Below are positions 39,714 through 52,399 of a DNA stretch of 64,000 nucleotides, in pieces. Each line of letters opens with the position of its first letter. Within the stretch, counting starts at the first letter, position 1. The notes below the pieces were generated by a model that saw only the letters and a program-made list of their open reading frames with translations, was not told where the DNA came from and ran no database searches. A program made the translations under genes and the position numbers. The DNA is from Candidatus Latescibacterota bacterium (GTDB taxonomy: Bacteria; Latescibacterota; UBA2968; GCA-2709665), in NCBI GenBank assembly GCA_965237675.1, contig OZ250150.1, forward strand, positions 3,520,001-3,584,000. The letters are read 5' to 3'.

Positions 39714-40965
39714 GGTTAGCAGCCGGTCTTATCCGCAAGAGCATGGGTCGCTCCTTTGTTGTCTGGTTCTTTTGGCTCTGATGATCCCGACACCGGGGTG
39801 GACGGACGAAGGCCGCCTTAGCCTGACCGGTTACGTGAAGGGTTTCGCGATGGTCCGGGAGCCGGTGTCCGATACGGAAATCCGGGACCCGGAGACCCAA
39901 CGGATATTGTTGAACCGCGTTCGCTTGAAGTTGTTCTGGCGTCCGGGTTTCGGGGTGACGGGAGAGTTCGCGTACGAATTGTCCGGAAGAGCCCCTGGGG
40001 CGCCGTCCTCTGATGCCTCCCGGTTGCCGGCGCCCGCGCCATTCGATTACCGGGTGAAGGATCTCAGGACGAGACTGTATCCCGCCCCGGGCGCCGAGCG
40101 CCGCGGGTTTACCATCACCCAGAATTTGGACCGGGCGGTGGTGACGATTTCACTGCCACGTGCGGATGTCTACCTGGGCCGGCAGGTCGTCGCTTTCGGT
40201 TCGGCACGGGTGGTGAATCCGACCGATGTCGTGGCGCCTTATTCCCCGCAAGCGCTGGACAAAGAAGAACGCGTTGGAGTGGATGCGATCAGGTTGCGCG
40301 TGCCGGTTGGGATGATGGGCGAACTGGACGCGGGTGTCATTCCAGGATGGGATCTTTCGAAGAAGAGTGGCGCCGGCTTTGTACGCGGCCGTTTTTTTTC
40401 GCACGGAACCGATGTTTATGTGATGGCGATGGGGTTCCAGGATCGTCTGCTACTGGGTGTAGACCTGGCCCGGTCGCTGGGGGATGCGGGCGCGTGGCTG
40501 GAGGCCGCGTGGACCCGCACTCCGGCGGGCCGGTCGTTTCTGCGGGTTTCGACCGGTCTCGACTATCGATTTTCCAATGGTGCCTATGGAACCCTCGAGT
40601 ATCACCTGAACGGCGCGGGTGTTTCCAGTACACGAGACTATTGGAGGTTGTTCGCCGATCGGACCTATGCAGCGGGGGGAGTCTACCTGTTGGGCAGGCA
40701 CTATGTCGCGCCGGCTATGGCATGGCAGCTCACACCGCTCTGGTCGGTTCGCATGCCCGTGCTGTGGAACCTGTCGGACCGGTCGGCATATCTGTCGCCC
40801 GCATTTGAGTACGGATTCCTGCAGGATGCGTTTGTTTCCGGCGGCGTGCTTTATGGGTATGGACGGGGCCCCGCACCGGTACGCACCGGGGTCTCAGAGA
40901 AAGTTGAATCGGAGTTCGGACTTTATCCGACAGTGTGTTTCGCGTCTTTGCATTATTATTTCTGA
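39700..40965 (+). CDS. Putative outer-membrane beta-barrel protein
   Basis: Hydrophobic signal; NLDRA, GRQVVAFG, NPTD, GVDAIR; C-terminal ASLHYYF beta-signal; start uncertain. Confidence 0.75.
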   Translation: MLLVEVSSRSYPQEHGSLLCCLVLLALMIPTPGWTDEGRLSLTGYVKGFAMVREPVSDTEIRDPETQRILLNRVRLKLFWRPGFGVTGEFAYELSGRAPGAPSSDASRLPAPAPFDYRVKDLRTRLYPAPGAERRGFTITQNLDRAVVTISLPRADVYLGRQVVAFGSARVVNPTDVVAPYSPQALDKEERVGVDAIRLRVPVGMMGELDAGVIPGWDLSKKSGAGFVRGRFFSHGTDVYVMAMGFQDRLLLGVDLARSLGDAGAWLEAAWTRTPAGRSFLRVSTGLDYRFSNGAYGTLEYHLNGAGVSSTRDYWRLFADRTYAAGGVYLLGRHYVAPAMAWQLTPLWSVRMPVLWNLSDRSAYLSPAFEYGFLQDAFVSGGVLYGYGRGPAPVRTGVSEKVESEFGLYPTVCFASLHYYF

Positions 40966-41106
40966 CGGTGGCAGGGCCTGCGTACACCGTCGATCGGACG
41001 TCCGCACTTCGGCGTCGTCCGGGCATGGTTCGGCGCTTCGATCGCCGGTTTTGTCTTTAACTCACCGACGGAAAACGGAGTCTGGCATATCAACGGAGAG
41101 ATTTTC

Positions 41107-42150
41107 ATGAATGACGGAAGCAACGCGGCACGCGTACATAGAGACGCTCTGGTGATCGATTCGCACAACGATGCGATCGTCAATCATATTCGCCGGGGAA
41201 ATCTGGGATTTTCCGGCGCCCCCCCACCTGACGGAGACCGCCGGAACGCGAGTGTGGCCGGATTGAGAGGGCTGCTGGACCGGCAGGCCATCGAAGCCCC
41301 GGTACAGATCGATTTTCCCAAGATGCGAAAGGGAGGCCTGGACGCCGCTTTTTTCGCCGTCGATGTCACCCTTGCCGTGAAGAACCATCTGACCTATGCG
41401 CTGGACGCCATGGGGTTTTTCGACTCTGAACTGGAAGCACACGGTGGCGAAGTAGTGCTGGCGAAATCCGCCGGCGACATCTTGCGCGCAAAACGGGACG
41501 GCAAACTGGCGGTCGTGCTGGCGATCGAGAACAGCGACGGGGTGGAGGGCAGCGTGAATGTACTTCGCATGCTTCACAGGATGGGCATACGTTCGATCGG
41601 ACTGACGCACGATGTCAGCAGTCTGGCCGCACACGGAAATGCCGAGGCACGTACCCGCGGCGGACTGACCCGTTTCGGCGTGCGGCTTGTAGAGGAGATG
41701 AACGGCCTGGGGATGCTGGTGGATGTGTCGCACATCAGCGAAGCCGGATTCTGGGATGTGATGGACGTTTCTCAAAAGCCGGTGATCGCTTCGCACAGCA
41801 ACTGCAAGGCGGTATGCGACCACCCAAGAAACTTGAGCAACGAACAGATCAGAGCGCTTGCGAAAAACGGAGGGTCGATGGGTGTGACCTTTGTGCCCCG
41901 TTTCGTCGATACGACAGCACCCACATTCATGCGCCTTATTGACCATGTGGACCACGCCGTGCAGCTTGTGGGCGTGGATCACGTGGGCATCGGATCGGAT
42001 TTCGACGGCGGGGGCACGCTGTTGGACGACGCGACTACGTTTCCTCGAATTACCGGGGGATTGTTGGCGCGGGGTTATTCGGAGGGTGAGGTGGGCAAGA
42101 TTCTCGGCGAGAACCACCTCAGGGTGCTGAGGGAAGCAATAGGATGCTGA
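41107..42150 (+). CDS. Membrane dipeptidase (peptidase M19 family)
   Basis: IDSHND, IEN, LVDVSH, ASHSN, HPRN, GIGSDFDG, ILGEN. Confidence 0.95.
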   Translation: MNDGSNAARVHRDALVIDSHNDAIVNHIRRGNLGFSGAPPPDGDRRNASVAGLRGLLDRQAIEAPVQIDFPKMRKGGLDAAFFAVDVTLAVKNHLTYALDAMGFFDSELEAHGGEVVLAKSAGDILRAKRDGKLAVVLAIENSDGVEGSVNVLRMLHRMGIRSIGLTHDVSSLAAHGNAEARTRGGLTRFGVRLVEEMNGLGMLVDVSHISEAGFWDVMDVSQKPVIASHSNCKAVCDHPRNLSNEQIRALAKNGGSMGVTFVPRFVDTTAPTFMRLIDHVDHAVQLVGVDHVGIGSDFDGGGTLLDDATTFPRITGGLLARGYSEGEVGKILGENHLRVLREAIGC

Positions 42151-42241
42151 AGCCGGCCTCCGATCGGGATGGTATGATCCTCGGGCCGGCTGCGTTCGGG
42201 TGGCGCAGCGCGGAGACACCCTGACGGGGGCCGATGTGCCT

Positions 42242-43111
42242 TTACCCGATGGACGGTACTTTGATTTTCTTTTTCTGGGCGATGGATTTTTCCATCGCTT
42301 CCAGTACGGCAACCGGCTTCAGCATGGACTCGCGCGTTTCGTCGGTGATACCGGTTTTAAACATGCCGCAGAAGGCTTCTGCGCCACCCAGATAAGGATT
42401 GTCGTCATAGCGGATGGTGCGGTCGACGCGTCCTTTTTCGCAGATGACAGACACGTGAAAGGCGGTGTGACCTTCGGCGAAAAGATTGAGTGTGGAGATG
42501 GCTCCGCTTGAGGAGTAAAGCGTGCCGGTATGATTCTTTTTACCCCGGTTGACCTCCGCGTGGGTAATGTCGTTGTCAAGCAGACGCACGACCATGTCGA
42601 CCTGGTGGATGCCATAGAAGAAGACGCCGCTCCACCTGGATTTGATATCGCACGGACCGGTCGTGACCACGGAGACAACCCGACCCAACTCACCGATCTC
42701 TTTTTTGAGTTGGCTGAAGGACTTCTGTTTGGGTAGCACCGAGAAGGAGCAGACAGGCACCCCGAGTTCCGCCGCACGGTCCAGGAAACGCTTGCCCTCC
42801 GAGACGCGATAGCAGAACGGTTTGTCCACAAATACGGGGATTCCGGCTTCTATTAACGGCCAGACCGCGGGCAGGTGGTATTTCGCGTCGCGATGGTCCA
42901 CGCATGCGGCGTCGACCTGACCGATCATATCTTCGGGGTTCCTGACGATATTGGGAATCTGTCCACGATCCTGGGCGTCTTTGGCGTACCGGGCGGCTTC
43001 GCCCCATACATGGGTGACGCGGCAGCCCGGTACTTTTTTGTCGATGTTCAACGTTTTCGAAATGGCGACGGTGTGGCTGTTCTCCGCGCCGACGATTCCG
43101 ATATTGAGCAT
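42242..43111 (-). CDS. Gfo/Idh/MocA family oxidoreductase
   Basis: IGIVGAENSH, VFVDKP, FYGIH; ATG 43111 preferred over the longer ORF that overlaps the next gene. Confidence 0.88.
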   Translation of the reverse strand: MLNIGIVGAENSHTVAISKTLNIDKKVPGCRVTHVWGEAARYAKDAQDRGQIPNIVRNPEDMIGQVDAACVDHRDAKYHLPAVWPLIEAGIPVFVDKPFCYRVSEGKRFLDRAAELGVPVCSFSVLPKQKSFSQLKKEIGELGRVVSVVTTGPCDIKSRWSGVFFYGIHQVDMVVRLLDNDITHAEVNRGKKNHTGTLYSSSGAISTLNLFAEGHTAFHVSVICEKGRVDRTIRYDDNPYLGGAEAFCGMFKTGITDETRESMLKPVAVLEAMEKSIAQKKKIKVPSIG

Positions 43112-43181
43112 ACGGGTCCTCCTGGGTTGGAATTGAGCTTGCGGCCGTGCGAAGACCGCTGGGGGTTTTTTGGGCAGCTTC

Positions 43182-44381
43182 TCAAGGCCTGGCGGGTGAG
43201 CCATCGGGCAGGCGGGTCTGCGTCCAGCCGATAATCTCATCCTGACAGGGGTGCTTCGAGGCGAGGTCCTCATTAATGTCGATTCCGAGGCCCGCCCGGT
43301 CGTTGGGATACATGTAACCGTCTTTGACTTCAGGCGTGCCCGGAAAGATTTCGTAGACGAGTTCGTTGAAACGGCACCACTCCTGGATGCCGAAGTTGGG
43401 CGCCCAGAGATCCAGGTGCAGGTTGGCGGCGTGGCCGACGGGCGAAACGTCGCCGGGACCGTGCCAGGCGGTGCGAATGCCGTACATGCCGGCAAAAACA
43501 GCCACATTGCGGGCGGGTGTCAGGCCACCCATCTGGCTGATGTGCATTCGGATAAAGTCAATCAGCCGATCCTGGATGAGTGGGGTCCACTCCCGCGGGT
43601 GGTTGAAGAGTTCCCCCATGGCGATGGGCGTGGCGCATTGACGCCGGATGTTGCGGAACCATTCCAGATCTTCCGGGGCGAGCGGATCCTCGAGGAAGAA
43701 CAGCTTGAAGGGTTCCGCATTTTTCGCGAACTGGACCGCATCTATCGGGACGAGACGTTCGTGTATGTCGTGGAGGAGTTCAATATGCGGGGCGGTGTTT
43801 GCACGGACATGCCCGATCATGTCGAGGATCCCGCGGGCGTATTCCCGTGGGTCATAATACGCACCCTCCTGTGCACCGTCCGGGCTGCGCATCCGGGATG
43901 TCCTGCCGCCGTACCCGCCCATCTGAACGCGAATGTGCTGGTAGCCATGTTCATGAAATTTCAGGACGTTGTCGAGGACTTCGTTTTTGTCTCGACCGTC
44001 GGCGTGTGCGTAACAGGCTGCGGCTTCGCGGCATTTGCCGCCAAGGAGCTGATAGACGGGCATGCCCGCGCGCTTGCCCTTGATGTCCCACAGCGCGATA
44101 TCGACGCCCGAAATCGCGTTGTTGAGTACCGGGCCGTTGCGCCAGTATCCGTTGACCATACACATCTGCCAGATGTCTTCGATTCGGTCGACGTCACGTC
44201 CGATGAGGAAGGGTTTGAGGTGTTTTTCAAGGGCGGTGCGGACCGCACGGAAACGCTGGGTGAATGTGGCGCAGCCGAGGCCGTAGAGACCGGGTTCGGA
44301 TGTGAGGACTTTGACCACGATGAGGCGTGATCCGGCCGGCTGGGTGAGGATGGTTCTGACGTCGCGGATGGTGACGGGCAC
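43182..44381 (-). CDS. Enolase-superfamily sugar-acid dehydratase (RspA/mannonate dehydratase-like)
   Basis: YWRNGPV, DIALWDIKGK, LLHDIHER, FLEDP, AMGE, TAWHGPGDVSP, QE. Confidence 0.93.
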   Translation of the reverse strand: MPVTIRDVRTILTQPAGSRLIVVKVLTSEPGLYGLGCATFTQRFRAVRTALEKHLKPFLIGRDVDRIEDIWQMCMVNGYWRNGPVLNNAISGVDIALWDIKGKRAGMPVYQLLGGKCREAAACYAHADGRDKNEVLDNVLKFHEHGYQHIRVQMGGYGGRTSRMRSPDGAQEGAYYDPREYARGILDMIGHVRANTAPHIELLHDIHERLVPIDAVQFAKNAEPFKLFFLEDPLAPEDLEWFRNIRRQCATPIAMGELFNHPREWTPLIQDRLIDFIRMHISQMGGLTPARNVAVFAGMYGIRTAWHGPGDVSPVGHAANLHLDLWAPNFGIQEWCRFNELVYEIFPGTPEVKDGYMYPNDRAGLGIDINEDLASKHPCQDEIIGWTQTRLPDGSPARP

Positions 44382-44540
44382 GGGCGACTCCCGGACGAGA
44401 CAACGGTTGCGTAGGCGGCGCGATCCCAGTCTACTTTAATAAGGCCTGTCCGGCGAAATGTCCACGGATATTTTCAGGGGTGATCCGTGGGGGCCGTATT
44501 CCGGTCGCCGATCAGCCGCGAATCGGAAAATGGACGGGGT

Positions 44541-45845
44541 CTAAAGCCGTCCTTCTTTCTGAAGAATATCTCCGGCGATGGCATAGGTCGTCCCGTGCAT
44601 GCCGATCACCACGAGGCCGATGCCTTCGGCCAGGTAACCGCCGGGGTACATGTTGGGAATGGTCGTGGATTCGTAATTGTGCGGATGTATGGGCAATTGA
44701 TTGAGCTGAAAACGATAGTTGTCGTATTTGTCCACCAGGGGCAGTTCGGGAAACCCCTCGAGGAGGGAGTAATCCGCGATGCCGCCGATTTCCACGATGA
44801 CATGGTCGATTTCCAGGGTCTCCCGGTTATTCCTGCAGGCAAGGGTGGCGAGGCCGCCGGACGTGCCCTGCTCGAAACTGACGATTCGGGTTTCATACCG
44901 GGTATTCAGCCGGGGGGACCGTCTTTCCATGATATCGGCAATGCGCGCGTAATAAGGAAGGCCGTAACGGCTGTCGGAAATGAGGCGCCAATGACGATCG
45001 AAGCGCTGGCGCATGACGTATTCTACATGTTTACCCGCGTCGTGCAGTTCGGTTGCCGCCCAGTCCGCGGATCGGCCGCCGCCCACAACGAGGATGCGTT
45101 CGCCGGTATAATCTTCCGGTTGGTCGTATCCGGAAGAAACGAACGGGAGGTGTTCGCCGGGAACATCAAGCTCGCGCAGGATGCAGCGCTGCCCGACCGC
45201 GTATACGAGGTATTTGCAGGTGTAACGCCGGACCGTATCCGTGTCGACTTCGCAGCATGTGAGCATGAAACCCTCGTTGTGCGGCTGGATGAGCGTGACT
45301 CGCTCGTATGTGCGGATGTGGTCGGCGACTTCGAAGCGGTCAGGGACGGCGTGGTAGTAATCGATGAGGTGATGTTTGGCGATTAAGGCGTTGACATCCA
45401 GGTCGATCTGGTTTTCGCGGCAATGGCGGTCGAGCGGATAGAAGGCGAATTCCATCCACTGCCCGGGAGAGAGCGTGAGCATGTTCTTAGGTACATTGTT
45501 CCAGACCCCGCCTACTTTCTCCTGGGTAATCAGCAATACGTCGACCGGTTCGCGTCTGTGGAATTCCATAGCGATTTCATCCAGCCCGCGGTATTTCTGT
45601 CCCGGATGGTGTAGAAGGCGAAACAGGTCCACCGGACGGATGCCGGCGTCCACGACAGCTCTGAAATCCAGCCCAAGCAACGTGCCGTTCGCGCCACGAA
45701 GGTAGCGGTCGACGGGCGCGTACCGATCGCGGAAGAGCGCCCCGCCGCGGTAATGCGGATGCCATCCGCCGAGCACGACGGCCAATGGCAGACCCGCCGG
45801 CCCCCCGCCCACGATGATGACGGTATGGTGTTCGGGTGTGACCAT
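44541..45845 (-). CDS. FAD/NAD(P)-dependent oxidoreductase, OSGIN1/OKL38-like
   Basis: Two Rossmann motifs (IVGGGPAG, VVGGGRSA); GGVWNNVPKNMLTLSPGQWM, LDVPGEHLPFV, HPHNYES. Confidence 0.85.
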   Translation of the reverse strand: MVTPEHHTVIIVGGGPAGLPLAVVLGGWHPHYRGGALFRDRYAPVDRYLRGANGTLLGLDFRAVVDAGIRPVDLFRLLHHPGQKYRGLDEIAMEFHRREPVDVLLITQEKVGGVWNNVPKNMLTLSPGQWMEFAFYPLDRHCRENQIDLDVNALIAKHHLIDYYHAVPDRFEVADHIRTYERVTLIQPHNEGFMLTCCEVDTDTVRRYTCKYLVYAVGQRCILRELDVPGEHLPFVSSGYDQPEDYTGERILVVGGGRSADWAATELHDAGKHVEYVMRQRFDRHWRLISDSRYGLPYYARIADIMERRSPRLNTRYETRIVSFEQGTSGGLATLACRNNRETLEIDHVIVEIGGIADYSLLEGFPELPLVDKYDNYRFQLNQLPIHPHNYESTTIPNMYPGGYLAEGIGLVVIGMHGTTYAIAGDILQKEGRL

Positions 45846-46006
45846 GAAATTCCCGGAACCGCCGTTGGCTCACCTGGCGCGGCGAGATGTCGGTTGCCGC
45901 ACACCCTTAAAGGGTGAAACAATCGACCTCCGGCGGTACGTAATCCACACGGGAAGCGGTCGGCCCGCTGCGTGCGAGGGCCGGACGTAAACCTGCGGGG
46001 TTGACC

Positions 46007-46035
46007 TTGACTTCAGCCGTTGAATAGCGTATGAT
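46007..46035 (+). promoter_or_regulatory. Sigma70-type promoter of the aminotransferase operon
   Basis: TTGACT (46007-12), 17 nt, TATGAT (46030-35); overlaps ATG 46031, which supports the later start. Confidence 0.6.
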
Positions 46036-46120
46036 GGAGCTTCTGATATCGAGGCTACAAAGTAGATCTGACGCCCCGGAGAGTCAAGCCAAATATCATC
46101 AATTAAAACGGGAGAAGCCG

Positions 46121-47488
46121 GTGTCCGACACACATCAACTGGATGTTGGGGAAATTCGGGCGCAGGACCGCGCGCACGTGTGGCACCCGATGGTGCAGCA
46201 CCGGTCTCTGGAGCACCTGGATCTGATGGTGGTCCACAAAGGGAAGGGAACAAGGGTGGTGGACGCCGAGGGTCGGGAGTACCTGGATGCGTACGCGGGA
46301 CTCTGGAATGTCAACGTGGGGTACGGCCGCCAGGAGATTGCCGCGGCCGTGTACGAGCAGATGTTGCAGCTTTCGTACTATCCACACCTCCAGGTGAATC
46401 TGCCTGCGGCAAAACTGGCATCCAGACTGGCGGACATGCTGCCCGGAGATCTGAACCATCTGTTTTTCTGCAACAGCGGTTCGGAGGCGAACGAGACGGC
46501 GTTGAAGATTGCGCGGCAGTACGGCCGGCAGAAATTTCCGGGCCAGAACCGGTACAAGGTGATCGCGCGATACCAGGGTTACCATGGGTTTACATTTGGT
46601 GCTATGTCGGCAACGGGACAGGTTGCGAGGCGGGCCAAGTTCGAACCCCTGATGCCGGGGTTCTTCCACGTGGACCCTCCCTACTGTTATCGCTGCCCGT
46701 TGAAACTGACCTATCCCGACTGCGGCGTGGCGTGCGTGGACGAGGTCGAAGAGGTCATTGTCCGGGAGGATCCGGCAACGGTAGTTGCGGTCATCGCCGA
46801 ACCGATTATCGGCGGCGGCGGCGTGATCATCCCGCCGGACGAGTACCTTCCCCGCCTGCGTGAGATCTGCGACCGGTATGGCGTGCTTTTGATTCTTGAC
46901 GAAGTGATTACGGGGTTTGGCCGTACAGGCAAACTGTTCGCGTCGGAACACTGGGATGTGGTTCCGGACGTGATGACCATGGCCAAAGGGGTGTCCAGCG
47001 GATACCTCCCCCTCGGGGCATGCGCGGTGACGTCGGAGGTGTTCGAAACATTTAAGGGCGAGCCCGGCGAAGAGCGGGAATTCTCCTCGGTGGCCACCTA
47101 TGGCGGGCACCCGGTTTGTTGCGCTGCGGCCCTGGCGAATCTGGACATTCTGGTGGCCGAAAGATTGTGGGAGAATTCAGCGGAGGTGGGCGCGTACCTT
47201 CTGGACGAATTGAGAGGGCTGGATTCACCGTTCGTCGGCGATGTGCGAGGCAAGGGGCTGATGATCGCCGTGGAACTCACCGCGGAGAATGGCGCCATGG
47301 TCGATGCCGCGCGGGTTGCTGCCGTGCAGGCGGGCATTATGGAACACGGCGTGATCGTGGGGCGCATGAGCCACGTGATGGCCGGGCCGGAAAGCATTTT
47401 CTTTCTGGCGCCGCCCCTGATACTGACCCGGAAAGAAGCGGATCGAATTGTGTCGGCGTTCTATGCGGGGCTCAAGCGCATCTCCTGA
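46121..47488 (+). CDS. Class III PLP-dependent aminotransferase (omega-amine/BioA-like)
   Basis: YLDAYAGLWNVNVGYG, SGSEANE, YHG, DEVITGFGRTG, TMAKGVSSGY, TYGGHP; GTG start with GGGAG RBS. Confidence 0.95.
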   Translation: MSDTHQLDVGEIRAQDRAHVWHPMVQHRSLEHLDLMVVHKGKGTRVVDAEGREYLDAYAGLWNVNVGYGRQEIAAAVYEQMLQLSYYPHLQVNLPAAKLASRLADMLPGDLNHLFFCNSGSEANETALKIARQYGRQKFPGQNRYKVIARYQGYHGFTFGAMSATGQVARRAKFEPLMPGFFHVDPPYCYRCPLKLTYPDCGVACVDEVEEVIVREDPATVVAVIAEPIIGGGGVIIPPDEYLPRLREICDRYGVLLILDEVITGFGRTGKLFASEHWDVVPDVMTMAKGVSSGYLPLGACAVTSEVFETFKGEPGEEREFSSVATYGGHPVCCAAALANLDILVAERLWENSAEVGAYLLDELRGLDSPFVGDVRGKGLMIAVELTAENGAMVDAARVAAVQAGIMEHGVIVGRMSHVMAGPESIFFLAPPLILTRKEADRIVSAFYAGLKRIS

Positions 47489-47499
47489 CAGAGGACGTT

Positions 47500-47658
47500 G
47501 TGGCGAACGGCTACGGAACATCCGAACTATCGAGCGGGAAGACAGGCGCACGTATTGATGCATTGATGGAGGTGACGCATGAACTCCTCGCCCTGGAGGA
47601 CCGGGATGCGGAAAAGATCCCGGGTCTGGCGACGCTGCTTATGAAAGCACTATCGTAG
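47500..47658 (+). CDS. Possible 52-aa small protein
   Basis: GAGGA RBS plus GTG; fills the gap between two co-oriented genes; amphipathic helix. Confidence 0.35.
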   Translation: MANGYGTSELSSGKTGARIDALMEVTHELLALEDRDAEKIPGLATLLMKALS

Positions 47659-47665
47659 AGCGTAT

Positions 47666-49225
47666 ATGCAGTGTTTCTACCGACATTACCTCGCCCTTCG
47701 GAAGGAGATGGAAGCCTGGTTGTCGCAGAGCCGGAGGATGGACCCGCCGGGCCGGCACGGCGGGGGAGAGGATGAAGCGAACTATGCCCTGGCCTGGTTT
47801 CCGCACTTTCTGGTCACGGGCAGTTCAGCAGTTGTGGAACATTTTGAGCATCTCCGGGATCGCCTTGCGGGTTGGGTCCAACGGGAATGTCTGCACGGCT
47901 ACGAGCCGGAGGCCGAGGCGCATCATGGTACCGAACCGTTTCTGCTTTTCCTCCCGCGCTACCTGGGTCTTTTTCCGGAAGATCGGGTGGCAACGGGACT
48001 ACTCGCCGATGCGGCGGAACATATCGGGAACTGGGTCAAGGGGATTCCGGCGTGGTTCGACTGGGAGCGGAATCGGTTCTACGGATACCACATCGGAACC
48101 CGAACCGTGGGGCGGGATCCGGAGCACGCGGTGGAACTGGCGGAGCATTTTCGGTTCATTCATATCTCCCTGGCGGCTTTCCGTGTGCTGAACGACGAGC
48201 GGTATCTGGATTGGGCGTTGCGATACGGCCGGCGTCGCGCGGAGATGATCGTGGCAGCGCCGACAGGACCCGTGCCGGTGATGTGGGGGCCGGATGGCCA
48301 GCCGATCAGCGAAGGCGGTTACACGGAATCGCAGCGCAGGATGAGTGGCGCCAGCCATCATGTACGGGGGGATCCGTCCGTGGGCGTGGAGGTGCTTCTC
48401 GCCTCGGGCGCTGTCTACGCGCTGGGGGATCTGTACCTTCTTTCCGGGGAGCATGTATTTCGTGACGCGGCATTTCGGATCGTTGAGACGCTTGTCGACA
48501 TGCTACGTGACCCCTATGGCGATCCGGGCGCGGTTGCTGTCTCCTATTATCGTGGCACATTTGGCGATGATACCCTGGATGGCCGTATCCGTGAGATGGT
48601 TGTGCAGATCCCGGACGAGGAAGCCGGTGAACTCGTGTTGATGGTGCCCGAGATTCCGAGGATGGTCTTTTCCGGCGTCGGAAAACGGGCGGATATGGTG
48701 TACTGGGGTGTGCAGGCAGACGGCATGGAACTGGTTGCACCCACGCGCGAGCTCTGTACGGCCTCGTTGACGTTGGCCTACCAGATTACCGGCGATGTTT
48801 CTTTTGCATCGCGGGCGTTGAGGCAGGCGTCCAGAAAGTTACGGGTGGCGCGGCGCGTCTTGAGGGGAGGTCGGGAGCACGCGGACATGGGCGGGGCGGT
48901 CTGCTCCGTGGCGGCCGGCCACGGGCGAAATTGGGGTTCGGGAACGGTGACCGGATGTTACGGGCCTCTCTTGCTGGGTACCAGAGAACGCCTGAGCGCC
49001 GTGATCCCTGTGGTGGAGTTTCGCCGGTCGGACGGTGCGTACGGTTTGCCGGAACAGGTCGTTTCGCTGGTCATCCCGCCGGGGCCGGCGGAGGGGAGCG
49101 TTCGAATTCACAACGGCGGTGACACGGATGTAACCGTTTCCTGGAGGCAGCCGGAAGCGGCGTGGCAGGATGTTACGCTGCCGCCCGGCGGCGAGACAAA
49201 GGCGGTGCTGGAGGAGGATACGTGA
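47666..49225 (+). CDS. Hypothetical protein, probable (alpha/alpha)6 glycosidase/epimerase-like fold
   Basis: 519-aa ORF; helical repeats DERYLDWA, LYLLSGEHVFRDAA, AYQITGDVSF; EAHHGTE motif; stop overlaps the next start. Confidence 0.7.
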   Translation: MQCFYRHYLALRKEMEAWLSQSRRMDPPGRHGGGEDEANYALAWFPHFLVTGSSAVVEHFEHLRDRLAGWVQRECLHGYEPEAEAHHGTEPFLLFLPRYLGLFPEDRVATGLLADAAEHIGNWVKGIPAWFDWERNRFYGYHIGTRTVGRDPEHAVELAEHFRFIHISLAAFRVLNDERYLDWALRYGRRRAEMIVAAPTGPVPVMWGPDGQPISEGGYTESQRRMSGASHHVRGDPSVGVEVLLASGAVYALGDLYLLSGEHVFRDAAFRIVETLVDMLRDPYGDPGAVAVSYYRGTFGDDTLDGRIREMVVQIPDEEAGELVLMVPEIPRMVFSGVGKRADMVYWGVQADGMELVAPTRELCTASLTLAYQITGDVSFASRALRQASRKLRVARRVLRGGREHADMGGAVCSVAAGHGRNWGSGTVTGCYGPLLLGTRERLSAVIPVVEFRRSDGAYGLPEQVVSLVIPPGPAEGSVRIHNGGDTDVTVSWRQPEAAWQDVTLPPGGETKAVLEEDT

Positions 49226-50205
49226 TGAAATACCGCACGCTTGGACAAACCGGACTGGAGGTTTCTGAAATCGGGTTGGGCGCATTTCCGATATCCGGGA
49301 TGCAGCGGCAGGCGGATGGCAAGCGGTTCGGATGGACCGGAACAGAGGATTCCGAGTCGATTGCGCTGATTCATCGGTGCGAGGAACTCGGGATCAATCT
49401 GATTGATTCCGCTGAGAGTTATGGCGAGGGGCACAGCGAAGTCCTGGTGGGAGAGGCCCTTCGGGGCCGGAGAGACAGGTGGGTCGTGGCATCCAAGGTC
49501 CAGCCGAACGCGGGGATTGACTCCGGTACGCGGGATGAGTTGGCCGTGCGGATCAGGATTACAGAGGCGTGTGAGCGAAGCCTGGATCGGATGGGAATGG
49601 AGTACATCGACATCTACCAGTTGCACGCCATTCCCTACGACTGGGCGATGCCGGCGGTAATGGATGCGCTCGCGAGGCTCCGACAGGCGGGGAAGGTGCG
49701 GTGGTACGGAATTTCGACCAACGACCGGCGAGCGGTCGATAAGCTCCGGTCACTGGGTCCAATTCATATGTTGCAGGTCGGCTATAATCTCCTGGAACGC
49801 ACGGCGGACGGGTTTCTACACTGGGCGAAGGCCGAGGATATCGGCACGTTGATTCGCGTGCCACTGGCAAAGGGGCAACTGACGGGCAAGTATTTCGGCG
49901 CCGGGGCTGACGTCATCCCCGAAAACGACGTGCGATACGAACGCTTCAATAAACCGGAGACGGTCGATGGGCTCAAGCGGCTGCCGCAGCTGCTGTTCCT
50001 GCAAAACCGGCAACGAACCATGGCGCAGGGGGCGCTGCGTTTTGTGCTGGATCACCCGGGGGTGTCTTGCGTCATCGCCGGGGCCAAAAACCGGCGCCAG
50101 GTGGAGGAGAACGCCCGTACCGTAGAAATGCCGCCGTTGACCGATGCGGAGCTCCAACGGGCGATCCCGATCGCGGATACCATTGGTACGCCCGGCTGGA
50201 TCTGA
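49225..50205 (+). CDS. Aldo/keto reductase
   Basis: MKYRTLGQTGLEVSEIGLG, IDSAESYG, ASK, IDIYQLH, PLAKGQLTGK; GAGGAGG RBS. Confidence 0.95.
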   Translation: MKYRTLGQTGLEVSEIGLGAFPISGMQRQADGKRFGWTGTEDSESIALIHRCEELGINLIDSAESYGEGHSEVLVGEALRGRRDRWVVASKVQPNAGIDSGTRDELAVRIRITEACERSLDRMGMEYIDIYQLHAIPYDWAMPAVMDALARLRQAGKVRWYGISTNDRRAVDKLRSLGPIHMLQVGYNLLERTADGFLHWAKAEDIGTLIRVPLAKGQLTGKYFGAGADVIPENDVRYERFNKPETVDGLKRLPQLLFLQNRQRTMAQGALRFVLDHPGVSCVIAGAKNRRQVEENARTVEMPPLTDAELQRAIPIADTIGTPGWI

Positions 50206-50325
50206 TGTCAACATTCCCGGGCGAACCGGCCTTAACGGCATGCCGGTATACACAGAAGAACAATGGTGATTTGACGTAAAAGTTCCAGGATGCTTAAGGT
50301 CACTCGACGTGAACGGAGAAAACAT

Positions 50326-50383
50326 CCATTTGAACGACCTAAATGCCCCGTTTCTGAAGTTTTCGCCGTGGTGTCGCCCTGCT
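50326..50383 (+). repeat. 58-bp imperfect direct repeat, left copy
   Basis: CCATTTGAACGACCTAAATGCCCCGTTTCTGAAGTTTTCGCCGTGGTGTCGCCCTGCT; 53/58 identical to 55239-55296. Confidence 0.9.
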
Positions 50384-51177
50384 GGTTTTTTTTATCCACC
50401 TCCACCATTCTCTTCCAACCCCCCACCGCCCGTGGGCTCCCCAACCTGTCTCGCTACGCTCGCCAGTTCGTATCAGCGATAAAACTCCTCGACAGCCTCC
50501 GCCACTGACTTTAGTTCAGCAAGGGCTTGAAATGCCTCGTGAGGAAATGCCGTGCCGTGCCCAGGGGATGGCAGAAAACTCCGGAGGGCGATTTCCCCAT
50601 GTGGGCCAGCGAAGTCTATGTTGTGGATCTCCGGTATTATAAGACTGATCCACCGTTGAGCCCTGAGGCAGAAAGTACGTGGTTGTTCTTTAGATATAGT
50701 AAACCAGAACGAATGGCTCCACGTCGAGTGCGATAAATCGTGTTTTGCTGAAAGGGACAGTAGATTACTACCGTCTCTTGCTATATATACGCTAATCAGT
50801 AGGGAACAAAATGCGCTGCTTCTTATTGATTTTCGTAATACTATACCCTTACCAAGCCCTCACCTGGGCAAATGAAATACAACCCTGCTCGGTGATTGAG
50901 TTTGACGATTATCCAGAAGTTGCCGCAAAACAGACCCTTAATTTGGATGTAGGTCCACCGCGCAAGGTTCGTTTGATCTATTTTCATTATAGAGATCGGC
51001 CTGTGCGCAGTCACGTAATTATTGGTATGCGCGAAACGATTCTAACCGCCCAGAGTCGTTTTGGTCAGCACATGCAAGCTCGACGTTTAGGGTATAAAAC
51101 CTTTGATATTGAACTTACAAATCAGAATGTACCACGTGTGTATATAGTAAAGAGTCAAGAATTGAGTTATCACTATA

Positions 51178-52399
51178 GTACCCATTGACGGCTAAAGCGC
51201 CGCGTAGTCTGGGTACAGCTTTCTCAGTTTGATCCGAGCATCGTTGGTCGTGAACCGCCAATGGACAGCCTTGCTTTTGTTGTTGCGATCGTTCGTCCAG
51301 GCGGAAATCTGCTCTTTGAGGGATTCAATATCGGGGATGCGTTCCTTCAAGCATTGGTTGCTCAAGACGCTGAGTTCGATCTCGGCGATGTTGAGCCAGC
51401 TCCCGTGTTTGGGCGTGTAGTGGATTTCGAGACGCTTGGCCAGACGGCGAGCTTCTTCGGGTGAGAACGCCTTGTAGAGTGCCGCGGGCGTGTGCGTGTT
51501 GAGGTTATCACACACCAAGACGACGGTTTCGGCTTCACGGTAGTGAGTATCAAGGAGATCCTTGATCTCTTGGGCCCAGTCCACCGCGGTCTTGCGTTGT
51601 CTTACACGGACCTTGCGCCAGCCCGCCAGCGGTTCGGTGAACATGAAGTTCACGGCGGTTCCGTTACGTTCATACTCGTAGTCGTAGCGTTCAGGTTTGC
51701 CCGGACGTGTTGCGATCACAGTACGCGTCTCCCTGACCAACTGGACCGGGTGTTCGTCCATATTGACAACGGGCCTCTTGGCGTCGTACGGCCGCTGATA
51801 GACGTCCAGGATATCCTCCATCGCGGCGACAAACGCGGCGTTTTGCTTGGGCGGAATCACCCAGCACGTTCTCAGGTGAGGCCTAAGTTTGTTTTTTTTA
51901 GCGTCCGCTGCACCGTTCGGTATGAGATGCTATCGATGATCTCCAGGGCCACGAGTTCATCGGCCAGCAGCTTCAGCGTCCACCGCTTATGTCCCTTTGG
52001 AGGTTCACTGCAAGCCAACGCGATCAATCGGGCTTCCTTAGCACCATCCAGCTTTCTTTCGGTGGGAGGATGGGCTCGCTTCTTTCGCTCAAGGGCCGAA
52101 TCCAGGCCCTCCAACACAAAACGCTTCCGGATGCCCTCAACCGTAGACCGATTGCACGAAAAGGCCTCCGCGATCTGCCGATCCAGCCAAGCCGGACCCT
52201 CTGCATCGGCCTTGAGAAGTACGTGGGCGTGCCTTATTCGGTAGGCTTGCGTCTTGCCTTTGCTTACCAGATCCTGCAGCCGCTCCCGTTCTTCGGGCGT
52301 CAGACGTACAACGTATTTCTTCGGCATGCCGATGGCTCCTTCGTCTTGAGGGGAGACATCAAACTATAGGCACGCGCAGTATTAGAAGTCAACAGGTAA
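51178..52399 (-). mobile_element. IS630-family insertion sequence
   Basis: TA duplication (51176-77, 52400-01); imperfect TIRs GTACCCATTGAC and TTACCTGTTGAC; two-ORF transposase. Confidence 0.93.
51192..52327 (-). CDS. IS630 transposase (HTH orfA plus DDE orfB joined by a -1 frameshift)
   Basis: orfA 52327-51872 (RWTLKLLADE); orfB MDE...CDN...NIAEIE; A8 run at 51899-51892 gives KKNKLRPH in the -1 frame. Confidence 0.93.

Follow-up and report, generated by a model that had tools for sequence, protein, structure and literature searches.

The window, by which we mean the whole stretch of 64,000 nucleotides analyzed here, carries an intact gene for a flavoprotein of 434 aa (P0001) at 44541..45845 on the minus strand, with an ATG start and 0 internal stops. 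The protein has a single match in its own genome, which is 99.9% complete. Pfam recognizes Pyr_redox_3 and Pyr_redox_2, and the best NCBIfam family is YpdA with 72.1 bits against a cut-off of 339.9. The predicted model has a pLDDT of 92, and residues 412–415 are the sole segment below 50. A prediction for a homodimer with FAD scored 0.00 and gave no verdict. A 299-aa ORF (44487-45386, plus strand) runs antisense over the gene; such frames, very variable in length, are seen in 59 of 63 related loci, and the ORF is most likely a codon-bias shadow. In 40000-52000 nothing reached the gathering score of an Rfam family, and no terminator-like site was found in 44300-46200.

The class III aminotransferase gene that the earlier note placed divergent from the flavoprotein gene is present at 46121..47488 on the plus strand (PF00202, E 1e-101). 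Downstream, at 43182..44381 on the minus strand, lies a ManD-like enolase-superfamily dehydratase, assigned below the curated cut-offs and adjacent only in close relatives. A candidate sigma70-type promoter of the flavoprotein gene (TTGACT, 17 nt, TACTTT; 46059..46087, minus strand) was read from the sequence as a consensus match only; our consensus scan did not list the site, and its TTGAC is invariant in 12/12 aligned close relatives. In 46007-46087 each strand has a sigma70-like promoter that faces the one on the other strand; both are kept in the 12 aligned close relatives, and transcripts from the two would overlap by about ten bases. Because ATG 46031 falls inside the plus-strand -10 box, GTG 46121 is the likelier start of the aminotransferase. 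Between the aminotransferase and an aldo-keto reductase, a 519-aa protein (47666-49225, plus strand) is kept in about 14 related loci and gave no Pfam or NCBIfam match. At 51192-52327 on the minus strand, two ORFs (151 and 222 aa) interrupt a low-GC WD40-like gene region and are presumably the halves of a split IS630-type transposase.

The divergent aminotransferase had been taken as a hint at an amine substrate, and this did not survive comparison with 63 loci, in which genes had been predicted by a rough heuristic based on composition, with shadow frames at times retained. An upstream, divergent aminotransferase occurs in only 15 of them (12 directly adjacent, three within 1.4 kb), all close relatives: it was found in 15/20 loci at ≥66% identity and in 0/43 at ≤65%, four of the latter having less than 1.8 kb of upstream sequence. 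No conserved operon emerged from the synteny comparison. The neighbors at other loci vary (PhyH, GGT, SDR, ADH, Gfo/Idh/MocA, DUF4252, Cas1), and since they vary outside the close relatives the gene looks stand-alone. We therefore consider it quite improbable that the protein acts as an N-oxygenase on amines or amino acids in concert with the neighboring aminotransferase. The divergent arrangement with its conserved promoter-like sites in close relatives would fit such a role, as would a weak Lys_Orn_oxgnase match (E 5e-5, residues 175–277) and the appearance of ornithine hydroxylases at Z about 26 among the known folds; yet the linkage is restricted to loci at ≥66% identity, and N-hydroxylases rank well below Bdr in the structure comparison.

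A protein search in which 7999 candidates were scored gave 298 homologs at E ≤ 1e-3, and the best 120 of these share 57–100% identity over nearly the whole length. The 63 loci come from a genome scan; where a title names a taxon, this is mostly Latescibacterota, besides Gemmatimonadota, Poribacteria and one Planctomycetota label; more distant family members are titled Chloroflexota or Dehalococcoidia. With a 90-member profile, 95 of the 168 genomes of the phylum gave a match, once per genome except for one assembly with two pieces. Carriers are found in five families (f1 20/21, f2 10/31, f3 1/3, f4 61/76 and f9 2/2) and in 0/34 genomes of the other nine. These five are families with heme-copper oxidase, and the aerobic genus g11 is without the gene (0/21); the link between gene and aerobic families is one phylogenetic pattern and not independent evidence. 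Among genomes sampled from the phylum to which a Poribacteria-titled record belongs, the same profile found a match in 25 of 151. Neither a plasmid collection (four partial matches) nor viral contigs contained a full-length relative.

Several parts of the protein can be assigned a putative role from the alignments. The FAD-binding GxGxxG motif (G13–G18; 45792..45809, minus strand) has G13, G15 and G18 invariant in 90 rows and Pro16 in 88/90. Pro16 would be the equivalent of the Pro needed for FAD binding in OSGN-1 and OSGIN1. The motif reads GGGP in this clade and GNGP in animal and Nitrospirota-type OSGINs, and the position of Bdr Cys14 is not occupied by a Cys. The second Rossmann motif GGGRSA (255–260) and Arg279 (together 45009..45083, minus strand) are similarly conserved, with G255 to R258 and R279 invariant in 90/90 rows, which puts Arg258 alongside Arg279 as an invariant arginine. 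Arg279 is the expected 2'-phosphate contact for NADPH. The protein is devoid of CxxC, and the clade alignment contains no invariant Cys. The motif FxGxxxHxxxY/F/W, which we take to be the FMO fingerprint, was looked for in the protein and is absent.

The OSGIN-type insertion covers residues 27–97 (45555..45767, minus strand) and has a G-x-x-P-x-Y start and an LF-x-x-L-x-HP motif. It is followed by an L-T-L-S-P-G-Q-W-M-E block (123–132; 45450..45479, minus strand), placed beside the flavin by alignment, in which L123, T124, L125, G128, W130 and M131 are common to the clade and the OSGINs and not to YpdA or the outgroups. L125 probably occupies the place of the FAD-stacking Phe of YpdA, a role described for Phe51 in Bdr (10.1101/2020.12.02.408641). 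A second, smaller insertion forms a predicted helix (138–151; 45393..45434, minus strand) and is present in OSGINs too, with a median span of 22 residues here, 21 in animals and 12 in YpdA, an indel of about ten residues. Near the C-terminus, a clade-specific loop on the flavin side (402–417; 44595..44642, minus strand) replaces both the GDNFVRF of OSGINs and the FIEN motif of YpdA.

The earlier note had proposed a bacterial homolog of animal OSGIN1 with colinear motif blocks. The six motifs that it quoted are all present (residues 10–32, 73–81, 112–131, 226–236, 251–260 and 386–394); the human OSGIN1 blocks set beside them are taken here as an assumption, and colinearity was tested on named OSGINs other than the human one. 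A profile of 45 animal proteins named OSGIN1/2 at source (fish, reptiles, amphioxus, arthropods, molluscs and echinoderms) covers residues 5–430 of the protein with model positions 15–480 of 487 at 105 bits, and the best YpdA-like protein scored on the same profile reached 69 bits. Identity to animal OSGIN1/2 is 21–28%. When 1.84 billion representatives were searched without a filter, the matches over the full length that follow the protein's own clade carry OSGIN motifs, and two of them are named OSGIN2-like (Cimex, E 3e-15, residues 5–406; and Oratosquilla). Both come ahead of the best YpdA, which has E 4e-12 and matches residues 176–279 only.

The insertion after the first Rossmann motif, said to be lacking in ordinary relatives, bears this out: its median span, measured from the first Rossmann helix to the next core strand, is 74 residues here and 80 in animal OSGINs, against 3 in YpdA, ArsO and TrxB. 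An insertion-only profile matched animal OSGIN with a probability of 92% and a score of 36.6, where 60 column shuffles gave at most 15.8, and matched the Nitrospirota-type insertion with a probability of 97%. An HMM of the animal insertion alone did not detect this single protein. Within the insertion, strands and helices appear to follow one another in a similar order in the models predicted for this protein (pLDDT 92) and for a fish OSGIN1 (pLDDT 85). In the Atlas feature search, OSGIN1 clusters were listed directly after two bacterial clusters. The Atlas model of P0204, a member of a third small clade discussed below, aligns over 381–391 residues (TM 0.81–0.85) with the OSGIN1 clusters and the two bacterial clusters nearest this protein, and over 319–330 residues (TM 0.71–0.72) with shorter bacterial flavoproteins.

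A core tree was built from 65 rows and 319 columns with the insertion excluded, the rows comprising 12 of this clade, 27 other OSGIN-like, 12 YpdA-like, 7 ArsO-like and 7 TrxB/FNR proteins. With these outgroups, the clade groups with the OSGINs at a bootstrap/SH-aLRT support of 100/98 under a site-mixture model (98 in a quick tree). It is sister to all other OSGINs, which themselves join at 100/99, has a long branch and is not nested among the eukaryotic ones. In likelihood mapping, 2779 of 4000 quartets were fully resolved for the OSGIN grouping, with 33 and 31 for the alternatives. Ten core columns are common only to the clade and the OSGINs and one only to the clade and YpdA, and four unite OSGIN and YpdA against the clade. 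P0203, a YpdA-like protein without the insertion, has an OSGIN-like C-terminal GPL.G start and comes out as the closest to the OSGIN lineage in the careful tree, a position that has no support (65/43).

These results have to be weighed against similarity scores, several of which put YpdA ahead of animal OSGIN. The protein scores 132 bits on the YpdA-like HMM, 102 on animal OSGIN and 157 on the Nitrospirota type, and profile-profile comparison gave E 6.5e-42 (296 columns) for YpdA-like and E 3.3e-37 (417 columns) for animal OSGIN; the YpdA-like rows had been picked as matches of this very protein, which favors YpdA in such scores. A divergent offshoot of YpdA, with an insertion that arose separately and long branches pulling it to OSGIN, would explain why YpdA is the best scorer among named families and profiles, why the insertion escaped the single-sequence HMM search and why an AU test did not reject a grouping of the clade with YpdA (p 0.262). 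It would leave unexplained the same insertion site, the similar length, the second indel in common and the significant insertion-only profile matches, and it conflicts with the site-mixture tree (100/98), the quartets (2779 vs 33) and the longer and better alignment of the P0204 model with OSGIN1 and the nearest bacterial clusters than with shorter flavoproteins. We consider this explanation improbable. Best matches among YpdA proteins, one part of what the earlier note named as grounds for abandoning an OSGIN relationship, were found in the family library, the PDB and the profile scores.

The protein differs from the core of the family in one respect that bears on how close a relative it is. 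GNGP and G-x-L-x-G-D/E-N-F-V-R, invariant in a 39-row alignment of animal proteins, are both missing here; across animal and Nitrospirota-type OSGINs, GNGP and GDNFVRF show little or no variation. Another bacterial clade is much closer to the animals. The protein belongs to a separate sister clade and is not a close copy. The description as a bacterial OSGIN homolog can be kept for homology including the insertion and has to be given up for a close or transferred copy, since the clade is a separate and deepest-branching one. From the alignments and trees, we read the protein as a member of a sister clade of OSGIN and not as a core member. We hold with considerable confidence that it is a soluble, two-dinucleotide-binding flavoprotein from the deepest known branch of the OSGIN/OKL38 lineage.

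The closer bacterial clade was met in a search with P0160, which returned about 28 proteins at 49–72% identity and then animal OSGIN1/2 at about 40%. Three of these relatives are named Nitrospirae, Leptospirillia or Nitrospirota. The Nitrospirota-type proteins (P0160, P0278, P0297 and P0300) keep GNGP and GDNFVRF, reach 303–373 bits on the animal OSGIN profile and group with eukaryotic OSGINs in the core tree. They have 25–33% identity to the protein in the window and the same insertions, and provide the best profile match overall to its clade (E 4.6e-48, 404 columns). Their loci L098, L102 and L103 (metagenome contigs; proteins P0160 and P0275-P0300) are bacterial, with a conserved gene run of DUF3015, Lnb_N protein, SLT transglycosylase, GHMP kinase, TPR protein and NAD kinase. 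As a bacterial model of human OSGIN, this type is better suited than the gene in the window. A third small clade (P0141, P0186 and P0204) has a shortened insertion and branches between this family and the rest; its relatives were looked for in viral contigs and none were found. P0163 is a further OSGIN-like protein.

The branching order among these groups bears on where the family came from. The Nitrospirota type was sister to animals in one quick tree, with only YpdA as outgroup and the careful search unfinished, and not in the others. Monophyly of the eukaryotes was not rejected (p 0.596, the constrained tree being 4.3 lnL higher), nor was a single clade of this family and the Nitrospirota type (p 0.162). 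The trees were built without fungal OSGINs, the nematode-like P0217 was used only in the first tree, and the label 'protist-like' is our own reading of mostly unnamed proteins, with Euglena named. One scenario, which we find doubtful when taken as a whole, is that OSGIN is bacterial in origin: a Bdr/YpdA-type enzyme would have gained the 70-residue insertion, the clade studied here would be the deepest branch to survive, the eukaryotes would have their gene from a later bacterial branch near the Nitrospirota type, and for animal OSGIN1/2 the label of cysteine-independent thiol/disulfide redox enzymes, like Bdr, would be more fitting than that of classical FMOs. If it is true, the bacterial proteins share a sulfur substrate with OSGIN1/2 and are compact proteins with which to find it.

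Among solved folds, the nearest to this protein is Bdr/YpdA (Z 33.2, rmsd 2.4, 321 residues aligned; PDB 7A76, 7A7B and 7APR), followed by type II flavin monooxygenases at Z 28.8 and then the ornithine hydroxylases. The fish OSGIN1 model gives the same top fold, with Bdr at Z 30.3 (rmsd 2.5, 318 aligned) and the best FMO at Z 25.3; no OSGIN entry came up in our sequence and fold searches of the PDB. As Bdr/YpdA leads the solved folds for the fish OSGIN1 model too, this top rank does not discriminate between YpdA and OSGIN. Judged from the predicted models, it belongs to the OSGIN lineage as a whole, and would place OSGINs nearer to Bdr than to the FMOs after which they are named.

Both parts of this relationship come with known chemistry. 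Worm OSGN-1 and OSGIN1 from humans have been described as binding FAD and oxidizing methimazole with NADPH in vitro, and OSGN-1 also as oxidizing TNB directly (10.1101/2023.08.06.552159). Bdr is reported to reduce its disulfide without an active-site Cys and to be reoxidized by O2 (10.1101/2020.12.02.408641). For the protein studied here, we picture an enzyme with the Bdr/YpdA fold plus the OSGIN insertions, in which the first Rossmann fold would hold FAD and the second NADPH. The flavin would be reduced by NADPH without a redox-active cysteine pair, and the reduced flavin would, by analogy, react with O2 at C4a and oxidize a small sulfur nucleophile (a thiol, thione or thioether). The form of the substrate channel is probably set by the insertion together with the C-terminal loop peculiar to the clade. 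We rank oxidation with O2 first because no other activity has been reported within the OSGIN clade, because the gating residues of Bdr are replaced and because carriers are confined to families with heme-copper oxidase. Our preferred reading, which joins placement and chemistry and which we would put at slightly under an even chance, is a cysteine-independent FAD/NADPH enzyme of the OSGIN lineage that oxidizes a small sulfur compound with O2; to the same joint reading, and at the same tentative level, belongs a stand-alone, single-copy gene of aerobic lineages that is not part of an amine pathway.

The main rival keeps this placement and supposes an NADPH:disulfide reductase that works like Bdr, independently of cysteine, on a low-molecular-weight thiol other than bacillithiol, with aerobic NADPH oxidation as a side reaction such as Bdr shows; we regard it as possible but on balance unlikely. 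Bdr is the nearest solved fold (Z 33.2 vs 28.8 for the best flavin monooxygenase) and works without an active-site Cys while being reoxidized by O2, this clade is the deepest OSGIN branch, and a true YpdA scores above cut-off in only 1/168 genomes of the phylum, a non-carrier. On the other hand, the fish OSGIN1 model also tops with Bdr, which leaves the fold unable to tell the two chemistries apart; the gating residues of Bdr have apparently been replaced, and no thiol pathway tracks the gene.

Candidate thiol partners were examined across the phylum. bshC is present in 19/168 genomes and in 0/134 of the carrier families, and a bacillithiol partner was rejected because bshC is absent from the carrier families; bacillithiol is unlikely as the substrate thiol. 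A link to glutathione or gamma-Glu-Cys was also rejected, GCS2 being found in 21/21 genomes of the non-carrier genus g11 and in 0/31 of the carrier genus g25. A role as stand-in for TrxB failed as well: the protein's own genome and genus are without TrxB, but family f4 has both (gene 61/76, TrxB 68/76) and g11 neither (0/21). The window's own genome gave no match to GshB, OvoA or EgtD, and matches to EgtB, BshA and MshC only under the cut-off. Worm OSGN-1 S126, mapped by offset in nematode-like proteins, gave no match.

Some observations on thiol systems in the phylum stand apart from the gene. Canonical TrxB is missing from the window's genome (G000) and was found in 0/14 genomes of genus g1 and 0/21 of g11, although G000 has thioredoxins. 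GCS2 glutamate-cysteine ligases are found in 14/14 genomes of g1 as well as in 21/21 of g11, with no GshB match in G000. YpdA-like domains under the cut-off (mostly model 1–265) occur in frames of 430–990 aa at L066-L069 and in 15 further genome matches, in Latescibacterota without bshC; these are probably fused forms.

A review from 2025 states that OSGIN genes seem to be restricted to eukaryotes, prokaryotic orthologs not having been called by any database, in line with the earlier note's view of OSGIN as a eukaryotic family; it also mentions that InterPro putatively assigns 81 bacterial proteins to the OKL38 family and that a likeness to a Bacillus YpdA was remarked on in 2004, and it gives no full OSGIN phylogeny (PMC11940746). 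A 2026 preprint on OSGIN likewise contains no phylogeny and describes OSGIN2 as largely insoluble in E. coli (10.64898/2026.09.08.750123). Apart from the remark in that review, our literature search, which covered mostly papers outside subscription journals, turned up no study on OSGINs of bacteria and no description of the Nitrospirota type. Two distinct bacterial clades would move the origin of OSGIN and tie the family to Bdr/YpdA more than to FMOs, and they offer compact proteins for work on OSGIN structure and substrate. The gain is tempered by the bacterial entries already in InterPro according to the review, by the YpdA likeness known since 2004 and by neighbors that give no substrate.

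Among known systems, TrxB is the label that JGI gives to several homologs, but the protein lacks its CxxC and scores 25 bits on TIGR01292 against 343. Class B FMOs (type II FMO/ArsO/CzcO; PvdA, SidA and KtzI) have the two-dinucleotide fold in common with it at Z 24–29, and ArsO also has GGxW and S-P..W motifs; the ArsO model gives 36 bits against a cut-off of 425, and ArsO lies outside the OSGIN clade in the tree. Bdr/YpdA (TIGR04018) shares the lack of a redox-active Cys pair, the PGE.LP motif and the NADPH site, whereas the protein is about 100 residues longer, does not keep the FIEN motif and, as far as the alignment can tell, has Arg220 in place of the gating Tyr128 and Leu125 in place of Phe51. 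To our knowledge there is no RhoA or cytokinesis context in bacteria. With animal OSGIN1/2 and C. elegans OSGN-1 the protein has in common an end-to-end alignment, both insertions and the GxGP FAD motif, and further with OSGINs the TLS..WME and PGE.LPFV blocks and the Arg after the second Rossmann strand. It differs from the animal proteins in having GGGRSA and GQR where these have GAGLSA and GTxD, and in being free of their low-complexity insertions.
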